DNA of 35,849 bases from Candidatus Aminicenantes bacterium (GTDB lineage: Bacteria; Acidobacteriota; Aminicenantia; Aminicenantales; Aminicenantaceae): positions 1-35,849 of the forward strand of contig DAOUYU010000001.1 of assembly GCA_030673995.1 (NCBI GenBank), in the 5' to 3' direction. Of the stretch, positions 1-35,849 are shown piece by piece. The translations under genes and the position numbers were made by a program. The stretch's first letter is position 1, and every line of letters starts with the position of its first letter. The notes beneath the pieces are model-generated. The model did no database searches and was not told the origin of the DNA. It was given only the letters and a program-made list of their open reading frames with translations.

Positions 1-69
1 GTTGCCTGTCCCCTTTTTCCTAGCATTTTATTGCCCCCTTTTTCTGTGCCCTTTTTCTAGCATTTTATT
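1..69. repeat. Window-edge copy of a terminator-like half palindrome, plus two direct repeats CCCTTTTTC(C)TAGCATTTTATT at 11-32 and 49-69
   Basis: nt 1-20 GTTGCCTGTCCCCTTTTTCC equals the reverse complement of 25184-25204 apart from one fewer T. It is therefore one arm of the palindrome seen at 25186-25236, and its partner arm would lie outside the window. The direct repeat has a 38-nt period and a 1-nt indel. A third CCCCCTTTTTC motif sits at 34-44. Confidence 0.6.
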
Positions 70-18831: not shown

Positions 18832-18940
18832 GAGCAGATATTAGCACAAATTCGGCAACGCATCTCTCTATTTATTTATTTTTCTCCTTTTTCCTTTCAT
18901 ATAAAGTAAAAAAAGAGAACCGTTTCCATTTTTAGGCAAA

Positions 18941-19188
18941 GGTTTTGGGGGATAGACGCAGCGACCATTGAAGATTTAGCCTTCCCTAGCTTCTCTTCGA
19001 GGGAACCCAACGGAGTTACAAAAAAGAGAGCATAAGCGAAGGCTGAGTGTGTAGAAAACCGTGAGCAAGGCTGAGCGGGCAGGGTTCCTCTCCCGGAGGG
19101 AGAGGAGAGCGAAGCCTGTATCCGAGCGGGATTTCCTCGCTGGGGAAATCCCGCGTGTTTTCGAATCACTTAGCCTGAGCTTTTTTGA
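18941..19188. repeat. Copy of the mosaic structured repeat family (head GGTTTTGGGGGATAG + AGCGACCATTGAAGATTTAGCCTTC arm + X module + Y module)
   Basis: 18941-19075 aligns with 25294-25430. 19060-19188 aligns in inverted orientation with 35721-35849, with 8 mismatches in 129 nt by my count. It contains the hairpins CCTCTCCC-GGA-GGGAGAGG and GCGGGATTTCC-n7-GGAAATCCCGC. Confidence 0.85.
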
Positions 19189-19190
19189 AA

Positions 19191-19219
19191 TTGACTTCAA
19201 TTCTCTATTCTTTTATAGT
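19191..19219 (+). promoter_or_regulatory. Candidate promoter for apgM, implying a near-leaderless mRNA
   Basis: TTGACT (19191-19196), a 17-nt spacer, then TATAGT (19214-19219). The ATG at 19231 is only 11 nt past the -10 and no SD is visible. This is a motif match only. Confidence 0.4.
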
Positions 19220-19230
19220 AGTTTCTAACA

Positions 19231-21646: not shown

Positions 21647-22530
21647 AAAGAAGAGATTTTGTTAAGGAAATCACTCTGGGAAGCCTCATCCTGAAGTTCA
21701 ATCCTGCTCTCTTCGCTCAAAATAAAGGCCCGCCTGATTTAGCCTGGATCAAGGGCGATTCTCCAGCCCTGCTGACCAGAGAAGCCATCGCCACCCTTGG
21801 AGGGATGAAGCGATTCGTCTCAAAAGGGGACATCGTTATGGTCAAGCCCAACATCGGCTGGGACAGGCCTCCGAAACTGGCGGCCTGTACCAATCCTGAA
21901 ATCGTGAAAACTATCGTCGAACTCAGTCTCGAGGCAGGAGCAAAACAGGTTAATGTCATAGATAATCCCTGCAATCCGGCAAGAAGGACTTATGTTCGTT
22001 CCGGGATTGCTGAGGCCGCTAAAAAAGCAGGAGCAAAAGTATCCTTTCCAAATCCCCACCGGTTGAAAAAGGTGGCGCTTAAGGGCGAATGGCTTAAAGA
22101 ATGGGAAGTTTATACAGACTTTATCGAAGCTGACAAAATCATAAACGTACCCATTGCCAAGACTCACAGCCTGTCGAGATTAACCATGGGAATGAAAAAC
22201 TGGCTCGGGGCGGTGGGGGGAAACCGCAACCAGCTCCACCAAAAGCTTGACCAGGCAATGATAGACCTTGCTGCCTTCTTCAAGCCCTGTCTTACTGTCC
22301 TGGACGGCTACCGGATTCTCATCAGGAATGGGCCTCAAGGAGGCCGTCTCTCCGATGTCAAGCTCCACAAAACCGTCGTGGCAGGAGTGGACTATGTCGC
22401 AGTGGATACAGCAGGAGCGACTTTTTTCGAAATGAGCCCTCAAGAGCTGCCCTATCTTCAAATCGCCCACCAGAAAGGATTGGGGGAAATCAACCTGGAG
22501 AAACTTGTCATTGAAAAAAGAACGCTCTAA
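21643..22530 (+). CDS. DUF362 domain protein with twin-arginine (Tat) signal
   Basis: 295 aa. The Tat motif is in MKRRDFVKEITLGSLIL...ALFAQ, and the body resembles DUF362 (VMVKPNIGW..., KTHSL...). Its ATG overlaps the amidase stop (ATGA). Confidence 0.7.
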   Translation: MKRRDFVKEITLGSLILKFNPALFAQNKGPPDLAWIKGDSPALLTREAIATLGGMKRFVSKGDIVMVKPNIGWDRPPKLAACTNPEIVKTIVELSLEAGAKQVNVIDNPCNPARRTYVRSGIAEAAKKAGAKVSFPNPHRLKKVALKGEWLKEWEVYTDFIEADKIINVPIAKTHSLSRLTMGMKNWLGAVGGNRNQLHQKLDQAMIDLAAFFKPCLTVLDGYRILIRNGPQGGRLSDVKLHKTVVAGVDYVAVDTAGATFFEMSPQELPYLQIAHQKGLGEINLEKLVIEKRTL

Positions 22531-24091
22531 AAAATACAGAATTCTCCAGGCCCTCCGGATCCTCAGCCAAACCCTTTTCTTCCTCCTCTTTATCTATTTA
22601 CTCTTCGGAACTCACTTCCCAGGAGAAGACTATATAGGCCGGGTGGAGATTTTTTTCCATTTCGATCCCCTTCTTGCTTTGGCAACTTTTATCGCTTCCC
22701 GCACAATTTTCGTATCTTTTATTTTTGCAGCCTTTACGGTCATCCTAACTTTTGTCCTGGGGAGGGTGGCCTGTGGCTGGGTATGCCCCCTGGGTTCCCT
22801 CCACCAATTTTTCTCATTTATCTTCAAGAAATTAAAGCTCTTAAAACCGAAAAAGAATATCGACAACCGAACAGCCTGGAAATATTATCTCCTTTTATTT
22901 ATTCTTGTGGGGACACTTTTCTCCCTTGACCTGGTGGGTATTTTTGATCCCCTCTCTCTGCTCTATCGTTCTTTCGCAACAAGTGTTCTGCCAGCCTTCA
23001 GCCACGGTTTTTCCGCCTTTATCGGCCTTCTTTATCAATTCAACCTTTCTTCTCTGGGGGACAGCTTTTTTCAATTCTATGAAAAGCTGGCAGTCAATCC
23101 CACTTTTCTCCAGGGCTTTTTCATCGGAGTGCTCTTCATCGGCATCGTTCTTCTCAACATCTCCAGAGAGAGATTCTGGTGCAGGTATCTCTGTCCTCTG
23201 GGAGCCTTTCTTGGTCTCATCTCAAGGTGGAACGTCGTGAAGCTCAAAATAGACCCTCAAAAATGCATCGAATGCAACCTCTGCACCATCCACTGCCAGA
23301 CCCAGGCTAATCCCTTCCCTGAAGAAGAATGGAAAAGCTCCGAATGCGTTTATTGTCTTACCTGCAGCGCTATCTGCCCTACAAGCGCTATCTGTTTCCC
23401 GATTAAATCCACGCCTGAAAAAATCTCGCAAGTCGACCTTTCCAGAAGAAAACTCATCTTTACCTCTTTCCTAGGTGTGCTCACCGTCCCTTTTTTCCGT
23501 CTTTCTCCCTCTGCAAGGCGAGCCTCTCCGAAATTGATCAGGCCCCCTGGTGCTCTTCCAGAGAAGGCGTTCCTTCAGAAATGTGTCAAATGCGGCGAAT
23601 GCATGAAAGTCTGTCCGACCAATGCGCTCCAGCCCGCCCTGACAGAAGCCGGGCCGGAAGGGATCTGGACGCCTATGCTTGTTCCTAAAATTGGCTATTG
23701 TGAATACTACTGCTCTCTCTGCTCCCAGGTTTGCCCTACAGGAGCCATAAGAGAGCTAACCGTGGAAGAAAAAACGCAGATCAAGATCGGGCTTGCCTGG
23801 GTCGACAAAAACAGGTGTATTCCGTACGTCCTGGGAACTCCCTGCATTGTCTGTGAGGAACACTGTCCCACCTCTCCTAAGGCGATAAAACTTGTTAAAA
23901 TTGAAGTAAAGCTTCCCGATGGAAACATAAAAACTCCCGTGGCTCCGATCATCGATACAGACCTCTGTATTGGGTGCGGAATTTGTGAGACCAAGTGTCC
24001 AGTTGTCGATAAGCCTGCGATTTATGTCACAAGCGTGGGGGAAAGCCGTTCTGAGAGAAATCAGCTCCTGCTCGACATTATAAAAGAATAG
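22505..24091 (+). CDS. Membrane-bound NapH/MauN-like polyferredoxin (multiple 4Fe-4S motifs)
   Basis: 528 aa. TM helices are combined with CGWVCPLG and CRYLCPLG motifs, followed by six CxxCxxCxxxC(P/Q)-type motifs (CIECNLCTIHCQ, CVYCLTCSAICP, CVKCGECMKVCP, CSLCSQVCP, CIVCEEHCP, CIGCGICETKCP). No ATG occurs in the first ~340 codons. A TTG start at 22505 has GGAG 5 nt upstream and overlaps the DUF362 gene by 26 nt. Confidence 0.8.
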   Translation: MSLKKERSKKYRILQALRILSQTLFFLLFIYLLFGTHFPGEDYIGRVEIFFHFDPLLALATFIASRTIFVSFIFAAFTVILTFVLGRVACGWVCPLGSLHQFFSFIFKKLKLLKPKKNIDNRTAWKYYLLLFILVGTLFSLDLVGIFDPLSLLYRSFATSVLPAFSHGFSAFIGLLYQFNLSSLGDSFFQFYEKLAVNPTFLQGFFIGVLFIGIVLLNISRERFWCRYLCPLGAFLGLISRWNVVKLKIDPQKCIECNLCTIHCQTQANPFPEEEWKSSECVYCLTCSAICPTSAICFPIKSTPEKISQVDLSRRKLIFTSFLGVLTVPFFRLSPSARRASPKLIRPPGALPEKAFLQKCVKCGECMKVCPTNALQPALTEAGPEGIWTPMLVPKIGYCEYYCSLCSQVCPTGAIRELTVEEKTQIKIGLAWVDKNRCIPYVLGTPCIVCEEHCPTSPKAIKLVKIEVKLPDGNIKTPVAPIIDTDLCIGCGICETKCPVVDKPAIYVTSVGESRSERNQLLLDIIKE

Positions 24092-24119
24092 GGAGAAATC
24101 CTTTATTAAACTTTAGTGT

Positions 24120-24902
24120 TTAGGGAAGCTCCTTTATTATTGTAAACTGTACGGTCTTCAACAGCTCCCCCTCTGGACCGAGCACATTCACATGCCATTC
24201 TCCAATCTCGTGGTCCATGATATTTTTCGTGCTCCATGTACGCCAGCCAGAGCCTCCTATCGAAAGAGAAATCCTTGCCCTCTCTGTATCTCCGAAATAC
24301 CAGACATGGGTAATCTCAATGGGAGTTTCAGCTCCATCAACCTTTGTAAAACAGAAAAGCTTGCCCACCGTGGACTCAAACTCTTCTCCAACATCTACGG
24401 GTTCGCGGTCAACCGCATCCCGGCATACAACTCCTTCCGTGACCTGAAGAGCAGCCGTTCCCGGAGCTCTGACTATCTCTTCCCTGGGCACGCCTTTTAT
24501 TGTGAAGTTTAAGGTCTTCAACAACTCATCCCCTGGGCCAAGCACATCAACGTGCCAATCTCCCGTCTCGTGAGCCTGGATTGCCTTCGTGGTCCAGGTG
24601 CGCCAGCCAGAGGCTTCTACCGACAAAGAAACTCTCGATCTCTCGATCTCTCCCCAATACCAGACATGGGTAATTTGAATAGGTTCTTGAACTCCGATAA
24701 TCTGTGTAAAGCAGTAGAGTCTGTTCACAGAGGTCTCGAATTCATCCCCCACATCAACGGGTTCTCGATCAACAACATCCGCACAGATAACCCCTTTGGC
24801 CACTTCAACAGAAGCCTCCTGTGCCCTTACGGTCACTCCCAGATACAGAGAAAACATAATCAGAGTGGCTAAAACTAAAAGGCGTGAAAACTTTCTTTTC
24901 AT
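24120..24902 (-). CDS. Secreted protein made of two tandem DUF2914-like repeats
   Basis: 260 aa with a signal peptide (LVLATLIMFSLYLGVTVRAQE) and a strong SD (AAAGGAGG). There are two ~120-aa repeats (C.DVVDREPVDVG.EFE....L.CFT......PI.ITHVWY.G..ER.R.SL.....GWRTW.TK.I..HE.G.WHV.VLGP..ELLKT..FTI). The DUF2914 assignment is from memory. Confidence 0.7.
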   Translation of the reverse strand: MKRKFSRLLVLATLIMFSLYLGVTVRAQEASVEVAKGVICADVVDREPVDVGDEFETSVNRLYCFTQIIGVQEPIQITHVWYWGEIERSRVSLSVEASGWRTWTTKAIQAHETGDWHVDVLGPGDELLKTLNFTIKGVPREEIVRAPGTAALQVTEGVVCRDAVDREPVDVGEEFESTVGKLFCFTKVDGAETPIEITHVWYFGDTERARISLSIGGSGWRTWSTKNIMDHEIGEWHVNVLGPEGELLKTVQFTIIKELP

Positions 24903-25185
24903 AGCAGTCCTCCTTTAATTGAAAAGAATAAGGTTATTGAGTGATTCCACCTTTCTCCAATTTAAGCATAAATGATTGTTTTTAACAACAAAAAAAATCC
25001 CTTAACATTCATGTGGTTAAACTTGCAGCAACCAAATTCCCTCTATTTCCAAAACGATCTAAACGCCCTGGATTTTTTTCTCTTTTGGCAAATAAGCATT
25101 CAATAATCCAGGTTATATATTTTAGTCGATTAAGTTCACCCTTTACGGAAAGTTGACGAAGTCAACCGGCCGAGATGTTTGAAGG

Positions 25186-25236
25186 AAAAAAGGGGACAGG
25201 CAACTTTTTAATAAAAAGTAGCCTGTCCCCTTTTTT
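25186..25236 (-). terminator. Bidirectional intrinsic terminator-like palindrome
   Basis: A6-GGGGACAGGCAACTTTTTA-A-TAAAAAGTAGCCTGTCCCC-T6 forms a 19-bp stem with one A-A mismatch and U-tracts on both strands. On the minus strand it would terminate transcripts coming from etfBA after the repeat array. A second GTCCCCTTTTTT half-site lies at 25240-25251. Confidence 0.65.
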
Positions 25237-25257
25237 CTTGTCCCCTTTTTTCTCAGG

Positions 25258-25646
25258 CATTGTTCTTCTCCCATCTCCTTCTTTTCACTACCAGGTTTTG
25301 GGGGATAGCCGAAGCGACCATTGAAGATTTAGCCTTCGGAGCTCGGTCTTCGAGGGAAGCTGACGAAGTTATAAAAAAAAGAGGGCATACGCTCAGGCTA
25401 CGTGTGGAGAAAACCATGAGAAAGGCTGAGCAAGCACGGTTCCTCTTCTCTCTTTTCACTACCAGGTTTTGGGGGATAGACTAAGCGACCATTGAAGATT
25501 TAGCCTTCGATGTTCGCTCTTCGAGGGGACCCGACGGAGTCGGGCGGCGAGTATGTCTGAGCGGAGCGAGTTACGCAGCCGCCGAGAAGAGTGAATAGAG
25601 AATGGCGTTAAAAATCTGAAGGGGAGCGAGGCTATCCCCCAAAACC
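25258..25646. repeat. Two tandem units of the mosaic repeat family; the second is closed by a perfect 15-bp inverted repeat
   Basis: CTTTTCACTACCAGGTTTTGGGGGATAG occurs at 25281-25308 and 25452-25479 (171-nt period). GGTTTTGGGGGATAG at 25465-25479 pairs with CTATCCCCCAAAACC at 25632-25646. 25258-25310 is 53/53 identical to 35658-35710. Confidence 0.9.
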
Positions 25647-25649
25647 TTT

Positions 25650-26627
25650 TTATTCTGAAAGAACCTTCTTTACCTCCTCTTTAAGGTAAGGAATGACCTG
25701 AAAAAGATCCCCAACAATCCCGAAATCGGCAACTTTAAAAATAGAAGCCTCCCGATCCTTGTTCACGGCTACGATGTACTTTGAGGAAGACATCCCGGCT
25801 AAATGCTGAATCGCCCCAGAAATTCCGATAGCCATATAGAGATCTGGAGAGACGGTTTTCCCTGTTTGGCCGACTTGATGCTGATGGCCTATCCAGCCTG
25901 CGTCTACTGCAGAGCGGGAAGATCCAACGGCTGACTGAGGAAGCAGAGAAGTGAGTTCTCTTAGTAAGTCAAAATTTTCCGGGCCCTTCATTCCCCTTCC
26001 TCCTGAAACCACTATCTCAGCCTCGGTCACATCAATTTCTGCTCCTTCCTCTTTGAGAATCTCAACCACTTGAGCCTTGACCTGGTCTTCGGGAATAACC
26101 ACCTCTTTTTTAACCATTTCTCCCTCTTTCGCTCCTGGTTCCATAAGGGGAAAAACATTAGGCCTGAGCGTAACTATCTGTGGTGAAGACCTCAGAGTAA
26201 GGGTTATAAAAATTTTCCCGGCAAAAATTGGTCGGGAAACTTCCAACTTCCCATCTCGGCACGCCGTTTTTGTACAATCTGAAGCCACACTTACTCCAAG
26301 TTTGGCAGCCAGTCGTGGGGCAAAATCTTTGCCCAGGGAACTCGCTGAAAAAAGGATGGCCACAGGCTTTATCTCCTCCGCCAAGGAATGAAGTGCATGA
26401 GCATATCCTGCGGCAGAATAGTTGCGGAGGAGAGAATTTTCCAAAACATATACCTTTGAAGCGCCAAAGGGGAAAACTTCCGAAGCCAGGTTCTCTACGT
26501 TATGACCAATAAGAACAGCCGCAACTTCCGTTTTCAGGTCTTCTGCTCTCCTCTTCGCCTCGGAGAGTGCCTCCAGGGAGAATTTCTTGATTTTGCCTTC
26601 TCTTACTTCTATAAAAACTAAAATCAT
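25650..26627 (-). CDS. etfA: Electron transfer flavoprotein alpha subunit
   Basis: 325 aa with the C-terminal FAD-binding region ...DLYMAIGISGAIQHLAGM...IVAVNKD... typical of EtfA. There is no N-terminal ferredoxin domain. Confidence 0.9.
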   Translation of the reverse strand: MILVFIEVREGKIKKFSLEALSEAKRRAEDLKTEVAAVLIGHNVENLASEVFPFGASKVYVLENSLLRNYSAAGYAHALHSLAEEIKPVAILFSASSLGKDFAPRLAAKLGVSVASDCTKTACRDGKLEVSRPIFAGKIFITLTLRSSPQIVTLRPNVFPLMEPGAKEGEMVKKEVVIPEDQVKAQVVEILKEEGAEIDVTEAEIVVSGGRGMKGPENFDLLRELTSLLPQSAVGSSRSAVDAGWIGHQHQVGQTGKTVSPDLYMAIGISGAIQHLAGMSSSKYIVAVNKDREASIFKVADFGIVGDLFQVIPYLKEEVKKVLSE

Positions 26628-35524: not shown

Positions 35525-35596
35525 TTTCCTCTCTTTACCAAGGCTCTATTTTTTAGATTTATATACTTATTAGTACACTGACCAAAAAAAATCAAT

Positions 35597-35849
35597 AAAA
35601 AGAGAGGGCATAAACGGAGGCTAAGGGTGAAGAAAACCGTGAGCAAAGCGGAGCAGACATTGTTCTTCTCCCATCTCCTTCTTTTCACTACCAGGTTTTG
35701 GGGGATAGCCTTGCTCCCCTTCAGAAAAGCTCCGGCTAAGTGATTCGAAAACACGCTGGATTTCCCCAGCGAGGAAATCCCGCTCGGATACAGGCTTCGC
35801 TCTTCTCTCCCTTCGGGAGAGAAACCATGCCCGCTCAGCCTTGCTCACG
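35597..35849. repeat. Copy of the mosaic repeat family, truncated by the window end (X module + Z/head + inverted Y module)
   Basis: 35658-35710 is identical to 25258-25310. 35694-35725 equals the reverse complement of 25615-25646 with 1 mismatch. 35721-35849 equals the reverse complement of 19060-19188. An internal inverted repeat pairs CGTGAGCAAAGCGGAGC (35638-35654) with GCTCAGCCTTGCTCACG (35833-35849). Confidence 0.85.

Follow-up and report, generated by a model that had tools for sequence, protein, structure and literature searches.

The 3' flank of the gene etfA in an uncultivated Candidatus Aminicenantes bacterium (assembly GCA_030673995.1, contig DAOUYU010000001.1, positions 1 to 35,849, the whole stretch of 35,849 nucleotides being called the window below) raises a simple question: what fills so long a stretch that codes for nothing? 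The etfA open reading frame (ORF) occupies 25650..26627 on the minus strand and matches the Pfam families ETF and ETF_alpha; etfB and a ketoacyl synthase gene lie upstream of it, and a DUF2914 gene lies downstream. Positions 24903-25649 are non-coding, as an earlier note on this DNA had stated: the longest ORF there has 74 aa, and no other gap between ORFs of 80 aa or more is as large. The note took its contents for a tandem array of structured units, to be read either as a miniature inverted-repeat transposable element (MITE) or as a multi-copy structured RNA transcribed in the sense of etfBA. We find that the flank is probably a graveyard of nested non-autonomous mobile repeats, that is, of decayed MITE relics, and not one functional array. 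The repeats belong to a family that has defined ends, target-site duplications, a partner insertion sequence and a preference for sites next to promoters, and that is polymorphic between close relatives.

The features that had suggested an array are all present. The head CTTTTCACTACCAGGTTTTGGGGGATAG was read directly in the sequence at 25281-25308 and 25452-25479, with a period of 171 nt, and the two units that carry it are 89% identical across 90 nt (repeat family D2). However, Tandem Repeats Finder reported no 171-nt array: the units have only their first ~90 nt in common, beyond which one continues into half of a module called here E2 and the other into the interior of a module called E1. 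The supposed array is in fact a nested composite of an E1 5' fragment, an E2 half, a linker and an intact E1. The perfect 15-bp inverted repeat, GGTTTTGGGGGATAG (25465-25479) against CTATCCCCCAAAACC (25632-25646), is also real, with its second arm stopping 3 nt short of the etfA stop codon (25650-25652); it was wrongly proposed as a transposon end, being the internal helix 1 of E1. The local hairpins CCCGAC/GTCGGG and GGCGGC/GCCGCC correspond to the covarying helices 6 and 7 of the same module. The true terminal inverted repeats (TIRs; 23-30 bp, GTAAGCATCTCC...) and 9-bp duplications sit further out and in other genomes, the copies in the window being without them.

The mobile form of the E1 family

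A 25-mer from the E1 core, AGCGACCATTGAAGATTTAGCCTTC, was found exactly 77 times in GTDB genomes, the search set consisting of one-genome-per-species contigs; nearly all matches fell in Candidatus Aminicenantes or in binned metagenome-assembled genomes (MAGs), from ~20 species. Recurrence on this scale goes far beyond what chance would produce. The multi-copy, structured and non-coding character claimed for the repeat family was confirmed. In most species the E1 core extends outward into TIRs of 23-30 bp, 5'-GTAAGCATCTCCATTTCCGTGAT... on one side and ...ATCACGGAWWTGGAGATGCTTMC-3' on the other, and a diverged second type of TIR reads GGTTCTCTTCCATTTTGTGTGGGT. Many GTDB and metagenome copies of E1 are bounded in this way. 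Among the GTDB copies, the 9-bp duplication is perfect (9/9 at zero shift) at loci L013, L062 and L071, and a match of at least 8/9 was obtained for 5/19 copies, compared with 1.2% in a control with mismatched flanks. Such duplications are the rule in metagenome loci that were found by their ends (perfect in L105, L188, L184, L192, L082, L146 and L157), so that perfect duplications flank at least 10 elements in total.

A scan of metagenomes with the end pattern returned at least 120 stretches. The MITEs are 77-350 bp long and have no credible ORF, and the interiors held between the same ends are E1, E2, at least five others that are unrelated, and what remains of an insertion sequence after internal deletion; minimal elements, 62-99 bp long, also occur. 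In L110, L170 and L192, MITEs of 235 bp that have TIRs and 9-bp duplications carry complete E2, and a 226-bp element is a classical internal-deletion derivative of the insertion sequence. Every cargo that is not derived from the insertion sequence is a long imperfect palindrome: E1, E2 and the five or more unrelated cargos fold as rods (z -3 to -6), whereas the deletion derivative does not (z ~0). The further types, which number at least five and combine the same ends and 9-bp duplications with rod-folding unrelated interiors, were observed in L119/L175/L196, L103/L129, L154/L100, L158/L169, L184 and L095; the L119-type interior has GTATCTGAGCGG...GAGAATGAGCGA, which recalls the E1 apex.

The insertion sequence that carries the MITE ends is 1384-1393 bp long (L186, L176, L199-L203). 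In L186, these ends stand 1393 bp apart around a single ORF of 425 aa, and homologous copies are present in L176, L124 and L199-L203. The ORF matched Pfam UPF0236 with 75 bits (cut-off 24), NCBIfam ISKra4 with 162 bits (2e-47, cut-off 205) and NCBIfam ISLre2 with 152 bits (3e-44, cut-off 200), and it encodes an ISKra4/ISLre2-like transposase, a candidate for the cognate enzyme that the earlier note had proposed to look for, together with a copy count and target-site duplications. At E <= 1e-20 we found 310 homologues of the transposase, mostly on contigs of ~1.4 kb, as expected of a collapsed multi-copy insertion sequence. With the E1 MITE this insertion sequence shares only ~30 nt per end, hence the E1 core is not derived from it. 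The IS66 family, which was suggested by the GTAAGC ends and the duplications of 8-9 bp, was rejected, the enclosed ORF being UPF0236/ISKra4-like and not of the IS66 (TnpC) type. An ISBst12-group element with a GTAA start and an 8-bp repeat has been described (PMC12898284), the likeness being only superficial. In L200-L203 the insertion sequence adjoins an AAA_14/DUF4143 ATPase gene and a DUF3800 gene (3' side), a neighbourhood that may or may not be meaningful.

No gene accompanies E1 itself. All-vs-all clustering of the ORFs within 3.5 kb of the 77 copies revealed no recurring neighbour, only spurious ORFs over the element, and no pair of 25-mer and 3' motif was separated by an ORF-sized insert. 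The plasmid and phage collections gave no match to the repeat. The E1 family has TIRs, a duplication of fixed length, small, non-coding and multi-copy units, and ends in common with an insertion sequence, which are the properties by which MITEs are defined; at the level of the family, the MITE reading is therefore borne out.

For prokaryotic Mutator-like elements, Guerillot et al. 2014 (PMC3942029) give 18-39 bp as the length of the inverted repeats and 8-9 bp as that of the direct repeats. The same paper reports that insertion of TnGBS takes place 15-17 bp upstream of sigma-A promoters, and that the same site preference, with conserved orientation, is found in ISLre2 and in several members of ISKra4. 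We examined 203 distinct termini for -35-like hexamers (TTGnnn, at least 5/6, directed away from the element). Such a hexamer was located exactly 16 nt outside the end at 35/203 termini and at 15-17 nt at 43/203, against a background of ~1 at each of the other offsets, and in 20 of these cases a -10 element followed at a spacing of 16-18 nt. The targeted promoter is mostly found at the GTAAGC-type end. By crude ORF calls, E1 occupies divergent intergenic regions far more often than convergent ones (21 vs 2), a preference that is explained by placement 16 nt upstream of the -35 box. The E1 core was found on either side of the adjacent promoter (8/29 on the 3' side, 7/34 on the 5' side). A strand-specific placement of E1 relative to genes was considered and discarded: the downstream gene is co-oriented in 37/47 cases, which by symmetry is the promoter-side preference again, and the clean comparison of orientations (16 ++ vs 8 --) is not significant.

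From these observations, a mechanism may be proposed. The mobile form is a module between TIRs of 23-30 bp, flanked by a 9-bp target-site duplication. A DDE transposase of the Mutator superfamily, supplied in trans, would cut at the ends and paste the element ~16 bp upstream of sigma-70-type -35 boxes. The feature kept in this process would be a fold-back that joins both ends, as suggested by nested insertions at hairpin tips and by unrelated cargos that are all rods; its retention would explain both the rod shape and the compensatory changes described below.

Fold and strand of E1 and the terminator-like E3

RNAalifold predicts that E1 folds into a rod, which the 15-bp helix 1 closes; the internal loops of the rod are conserved, and a three-way junction forms its apex. 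For the copy next to etfA, the computed folding energy is -88 kcal/mol (z -7.2) for the + strand and -71.8 kcal/mol (z -6.1) for the - strand. When E1 copies were aligned and checked for covariation, another step proposed earlier, 25/60 pairs of the first sample were found to be compensatory, with 97% of cells paired and a covariation score of 0.245 vs 0.04-0.07 when the partners were slid. A second sample, which was collected through the ends and not through the 25-mer, gave 29/60 compensatory pairs and 90% of cells paired; the slid controls contained 3-14 compensatory pairs. Since the 25-mer was the search pattern, its invariance in the first sample carries no meaning. In the sample ascertained by ends, it is exact in 10/18 copies, and the 3' 20-mer GAATGGCGTTAAAAATCTGA is exact in 17/21. 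Compensatory change above the level of the controls is thus a property of E1, but fold-back of DNA would yield the same signal. The earlier note had regarded the sense of etfBA as the structured strand. The data do not support this: on the + strand of the window, which is antisense to etfBA, G-U pairs exceed A-C mismatches (54 vs 14 cells; by columns, 13 vs 3 in the inner helices and 10 vs 7 in the outer helix), and if a single strand is structured at all, it is this one.

These data bear directly on the possibility of a functional structured RNA in the E1 core, which would be a cis element or a mobile gene for a non-coding RNA and would ride between MITE ends, the window copy being expressed as a + strand RNA convergent with etfA. 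Strong covariation in two independently collected samples is in favour of this reading, although the copies are related and the counts are therefore those of non-independent events. The three-way junction with its covarying local hairpins goes beyond a single fold-back, and the excess of G-U over A-C points to one strand; on the other hand, the unrelated cargos with the same ends are also rods, which argues for a generic need to fold back rather than for a specific RNA function. The loop and core sequence is near-invariant while the outer helix varies freely, the core does not come from the insertion sequence, and inserts of variable length are carried at helix tips, as in many structured RNAs. 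However, neither within the element, as examined in L092, nor in the window region is there a promoter-like site upstream of the core; nothing obvious would transcribe E1 in the divergent regions; and the orientation of the core is unfixed relative to the adjacent promoter and not clearly fixed relative to genes. Database comparison is also unfavourable: Rfam 15 at the gathering score gave no match in the window or in 15 related loci, long variants and E2 included, and for the repeat region at E values up to 10 it returned only microRNA-type hairpin models, on the E3 palindrome alone. We therefore regard a functional RNA as rather unlikely, and prefer the explanation that E1 is the cargo of a MITE. 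The statement that no named family could be recognised agrees with these searches and with the literature, where a search covering repeats of Aminicenantes, structured RNAs and the sequence itself yielded nothing relevant.

Several other observations concern the E1 module. E1 was also considered as a remnant of a protein-coding sequence (+ frame ...TRFWGIAEATIEDLAFG...), and this was rejected: in the alignment there are small indels near the head, and conservation is at the nucleotide level with paired changes. Nested insertions are located at hairpin or helix tips. A palindromic repeat, GGGGTCAGGCCTTATCATA...GGCAAGGCCTGACCCC, is inserted at the E1 tip in L014, L034, L053, L157 and L172 and seems to be a further nested element family. 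In L035 and L054 (CSMAG_1012), E1 helix 6 is broken by the same unrelated sequence, CAGACTGTGTCATAATTATTTTT..., which runs to the contig end and probably represents the terminus of a different insertion sequence, one with this hairpin as its target.

A third palindrome, E3 (AAAAAAGGGGACAGGC...GCCTGTCCCCTTTTTT, 25185..25237), also belongs to the composite. Its presence had been noted correctly, but it is longer than was described, with 26-nt arms (25185-25210 and 25212-25237) that are 96% complementary. The RNA hairpin has a folding energy of -43.2 kcal/mol (z -6.6), and U6 follows it on either strand, the sense of etfBA included; E3 is a candidate bidirectional intrinsic terminator. It was missed by a simple terminator scan because its stem and loop are beyond the limits of the scanner. 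E3 belongs to a dispersed repeat family, copies of its sequence being present at window 1-21 and in L050, L073, L031 and L075-L077. As AAAAAAGGGGACAGGCWACTTTTT ... AAAAAGTWGCCTGTCCCCTTTTTT (window 25185-25237 and 1-60), it is dispersed across Aminicenantes loci, L054 and L051 too, and related A/T-flanked GGGGAC...GTCCCC hairpins stand in for helix 6 in the E1 of L019, L021, L037, L039, L055 and L067. E3 looks like a REP-like mobile terminator (REP, repetitive extragenic palindrome).

Transcripts of etfBA would probably run through the antisense strand of E1 and stop at the E3 hairpin and its U-run, from 25237 to 25185. The array might have been co-opted as an etfBA 3' untranslated region, its hairpins shielding the mRNA from 3' exonucleases and E3 serving as the operon terminator. 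The minus-strand transcript of E1 does fold strongly (-71.8 kcal/mol, z -6.1), but the structural constraint favours the opposite strand. E3 forms a hairpin of -43 kcal/mol followed by U6 in the sense of etfBA, but the terminator scanner listed nothing in the region. E1 abuts the etfA stop codon, and this position is kept in L069, a MAG ~95% identical to the window; the stretch from E1 to E3, E3 included, is absent there, and the arrangement is thus no conserved feature of the operon. Moreover, the family sits by promoters (-35 peak at 16 nt), and only 2/47 sites lie in convergent regions. For these reasons co-option appears quite improbable, and the flank is better explained by relics of mobile repeats.

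Repeat nests in the window as probable decayed relics

Comparison with the relative (L069, MAG RS_12_32) demonstrates that the repeats are polymorphic. L069 is without window positions 25141-25352, so that its orthologous site has no E3. At a point corresponding to window ~24086-24095 it contains an additional composite, made up of E1 fragment, E2 fragment, linker and E1, that the window lacks. In L069 this composite replaces 22 nt, the stop codon of a ferredoxin-like gene included, and no target is duplicated. In reoriented L069 (4560-4880, compared with window 22505-24091), the last codons and the stop of this Fer4 gene have been replaced, so the element supplies a new C-terminus and a new stop codon. 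Allowing up to 5 mismatches, no end-like sequence was detected in the window, and there are no duplications at the window copies. The lack of ends, the interruption of modules by each other and by E3, and the indels relative to L069 identify the window copies as probable decaying relics.

The order of the modules in the etfA flank can be followed from left to right. An orphan fragment of a long variant of E1 (25150..25182, + strand), comprising the helix-6 hairpin and the start of helix 7 (AAGTTGACGAAGTCAACCGGCCGAGATGTTTGA), is identical at 33/33 nt to the interior of the long E1 in L017, L032 and L008; the covariance model of E1 gave a weak partial match here (25141-25177, model positions 60-130). 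E3 follows, and its right arm carries an exact 15-nt tandem duplication, TGTCCCCTTTTTTCT twice (25224..25253, + strand; Tandem Repeats Finder: period 15, 2.0 copies, 100% match). Next come a degenerate tail of the E2 left half and a linker (...TTCTTTTCACTACC; 25254..25292, + strand), where 25254-25310 is 98% identical to 35654-35710 (family D4); in this lineage E1 is preceded by this junction, as is seen also in L008, L031, L032, L038 and L069. The truncated 5' arm of E1 (25293..25369, + strand) contains the head and the 25-mer (25313-25337) together with the 5' strand of helix 5 and a portion of helix 6. Over 90 nt it shares 89% identity with the intact copy, and it ends at ...GAAGT, where it is cut by the E2 half. 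Over 25289-25455 the covariance model scored 24 bits only. The E1::E2 junction, GGAGT followed by TAYAAAAAAGAG, also occurs at window 19012-19020 and in L069.

The left half of E2 (M1; 25372..25446, + strand) is 83% identical to 19017-19091 and 77% identical to 35595-35669 (family D3). A 17-nt linker, TCTCTCTTTTCACTACC (25447..25463, + strand), joins it to E1 and keeps the same position in L008, L031, L032, L038 and L069. The last module is the sole intact E1 of the window (25464..25647, + strand, 184 nt), whose + strand the covariance model R1, built from 26 E1 copies, matched with 221.7 bits (E 3e-54), against 32 bits for the - strand; the two fragments of the window scored 24 and 16 bits.

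As had been reported, the modules are found again in the window at 18927-19189, 35595-35849 and 1-21. The region between guaA and the phosphoglycerate-mutase gene contains a second truncated 5' arm of E1 (18936..19016, + strand; 74% identical to 25280-25369, family D2; exact 25-mer at 18960) and a complete E2 (M1 + M3; 19017..19189, + strand), which ends 10 nt upstream of TTGACT, a -35-like hexamer by eye. Also by eye, a promoter-like sequence, TTTTTTGAAA(A)TTGACTTCA...TTATAGT, stands ahead of the phosphoglycerate-mutase gene (window 19180-19230) and, in L056, after an E1 MITE that has its ends; in two distant lineages, the position ahead of it seems to have been occupied. A 90-aa GTG ORF on the minus strand (18897..19169) lies wholly inside the E1 fragment and the E2 repeat and is almost certainly spurious and no gene. 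The third nest (35595..35849), inside which the window ends, consists of an E2 left half (35595-35669, +), a linker, an inverted E1 3' end (35693-35725, repeat I2; 33 nt, 97% complementary to 25615-25647) and an inverted E2 (35720-35849, repeat I1; 130 nt, 95% complementary to 19060-19189).

The composites without ends could also have spread by another route, namely a REPIN-like one through a RAYT (REP-associated tyrosine transposase) or IS200-type single-strand transposase, site-specific insertion of palindromes into hairpin tips, or recombination between dispersed copies. At least eight copies in the window lineage have the same junction of E2 half, linker and E1, with neither ends nor duplications and with variable left boundaries; variable truncation, however, is equally expected from the decay of old insertions. 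The E1::E2 junction is identical at three loci, nested elements always sit at hairpin tips, and the filled site of L069 replaces 22 nt with no target duplicated. The wobble bias of one strand would fit a single-stranded DNA intermediate as well. On the other hand, no RAYT-like or other recurrent gene is found near any copy, and elsewhere the same modules clearly move as TIR-bounded MITEs. Such a route is, in our judgement, very improbable, and decay of former MITEs remains the preferred explanation of the composites.

This explanation has to be set against several points that weigh against it. The conservation of the E1 core, asymmetric internal loops included, exceeds what mere fold-back needs, and the excess of wobble pairs on the + strand hints at selection on one single strand. 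The status of the window copies as MITEs rests on homology of their core to end-bearing copies elsewhere, and it does not account for the spread of the end-less composite of E2 half, linker and E1 to at least eight sites. The transposase scores below the curated NCBIfam cut-offs, which places it in the superfamily but in neither named family. DNA similarity placed no contig with the insertion sequence in Aminicenantes, and the co-occurrence of insertion sequence and MITE in one genome is presumptive. Lastly, all of the evidence is computational. On balance, the repeat family is real and apparently undescribed, and is selfish DNA of an ordinary kind, a MITE, rather than a dedicated RNA associated with etfA.

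Two further observations were made in the neighbourhood of the flank. The DUF2914 gene (24120..24902) has an internal direct repeat of 300 nt (24137-24436 and 24497-24796, 73% identity, 360-nt spacing); with its two Pfam DUF2914 stretches, this amounts to a tandem domain duplication within the gene. The only other assembly with an identical etfA, Logan contig SRR26080958_263107 (L001), stops inside E1, 29 nt beyond the etfA stop codon, as short-read assemblies break at the repeat.

Comparison with known mobile repeats

Elements of the IS200/IS605 type are not known to have TIRs or target duplications and carry a guide segment beside a scaffold. E1 is similar to HEARO and omega-RNA, the guides of IscB and TnpB, in being multi-copy, strongly covarying, ~200 nt long and often without an adjacent protein gene. 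It differs in having TIRs and target duplications; Rfam gave no match to HEARO or the IS605-orfB motifs, and no IscB or TnpB gene is situated nearby.

REP units are ~35 bp long, are moved by RAYT (Y1) transposases and are not known to create duplications. The nests described here resemble BIMEs (bacterial interspersed mosaic elements), REP mosaics and REPINs, as they are intergenic mosaics of few palindromic modules which vary in order and orientation and are polymorphic between relatives; as in BIMEs and REP mosaics, some of the modules are terminator-like. The modules, however, measure 170-190 nt and elsewhere have DDE-type ends and 9-bp duplications, and no RAYT-like gene was seen.

Bacterial MITEs include Correia/NEMIS of Neisseria, ERIC/IRU of enterobacteria, RUP of Streptococcus pneumoniae and Nezha of cyanobacteria. 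The present family agrees with them in its size (77-350 bp), the absence of an ORF, the many intergenic copies, the TIRs in common with an autonomous insertion sequence and the 9-bp duplication, as well as in the folding of the whole element into a long hairpin and in copies that decay and nest. It differs in that the partner in Aminicenantes is a promoter-targeted insertion sequence of the Mutator superfamily (ISKra4/ISLre2-like), and in that one pair of ends is combined with at least seven unrelated palindromic cargos, one cargo alone being a deletion derivative of the insertion sequence. Further differences are the three-way junction and the core of the E1 cargo, which is near-invariant across species, and the host itself, since the literature searched gave no such repeats for Aminicenantes.

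Also close are the TnGBS, ISLre2 and ISKra4 elements (p-MULT 3 and 4; PMC3942029), with which the family shares a single DDE transposase (UPF0236), inverted repeats in the 18-39 bp range and direct repeats of 8-9 bp. The published distance of 15-17 bp upstream of the -35 box has its counterpart here in the sharp peak at 16 nt, and the location of the promoter mostly at one end type echoes the conserved orientation reported for those elements. The transposase is below both NCBIfam cut-offs and thus represents a lineage separate from ISKra4 and ISLre2, and the window holds end-less relics of cargo instead of an insertion sequence. The paper (PMC3942029) covers insertion sequences, transposons and integrative and conjugative elements, and the term MITE is absent from its main text. 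The Pack-MULEs of plants (MULE, Mutator-like element), which are mentioned there, are likewise non-autonomous and of the Mutator type, have foreign interiors and prefer the 5' or promoter side. In the present family, which is prokaryotic, the cargo is a short palindromic non-coding sequence instead of gene fragments.

The likeness suggests a bolder reading, to which we give a low probability: a bacterial counterpart of Pack-MULEs in which one pair of ends sets unrelated structured cargos 16 bp upstream of host promoters, E1 being a functional element of single-stranded RNA or DNA and the etfA copy having been stranded or domesticated. If this were true, E1 could be a promoter insulator, a regulator or a scaffold for protein binding, not mere fold-back.

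On the preferred reading, that of decayed MITE relics, annotation as repeat relics becomes possible for the 750-nt gene desert, for the two other nests of the window and for spurious ORFs, 18897..19169 among them. Given the sharp spacing of 16 nt to -35 boxes, each insertion would also mark a real promoter in organisms that lack genetics. As far as we found, no MITEs had previously been linked to the promoter-targeting ISKra4/ISLre2/TnGBS branch of Mutator-like transposases, and no repeat family had been described for the uncultivated Aminicenantes.

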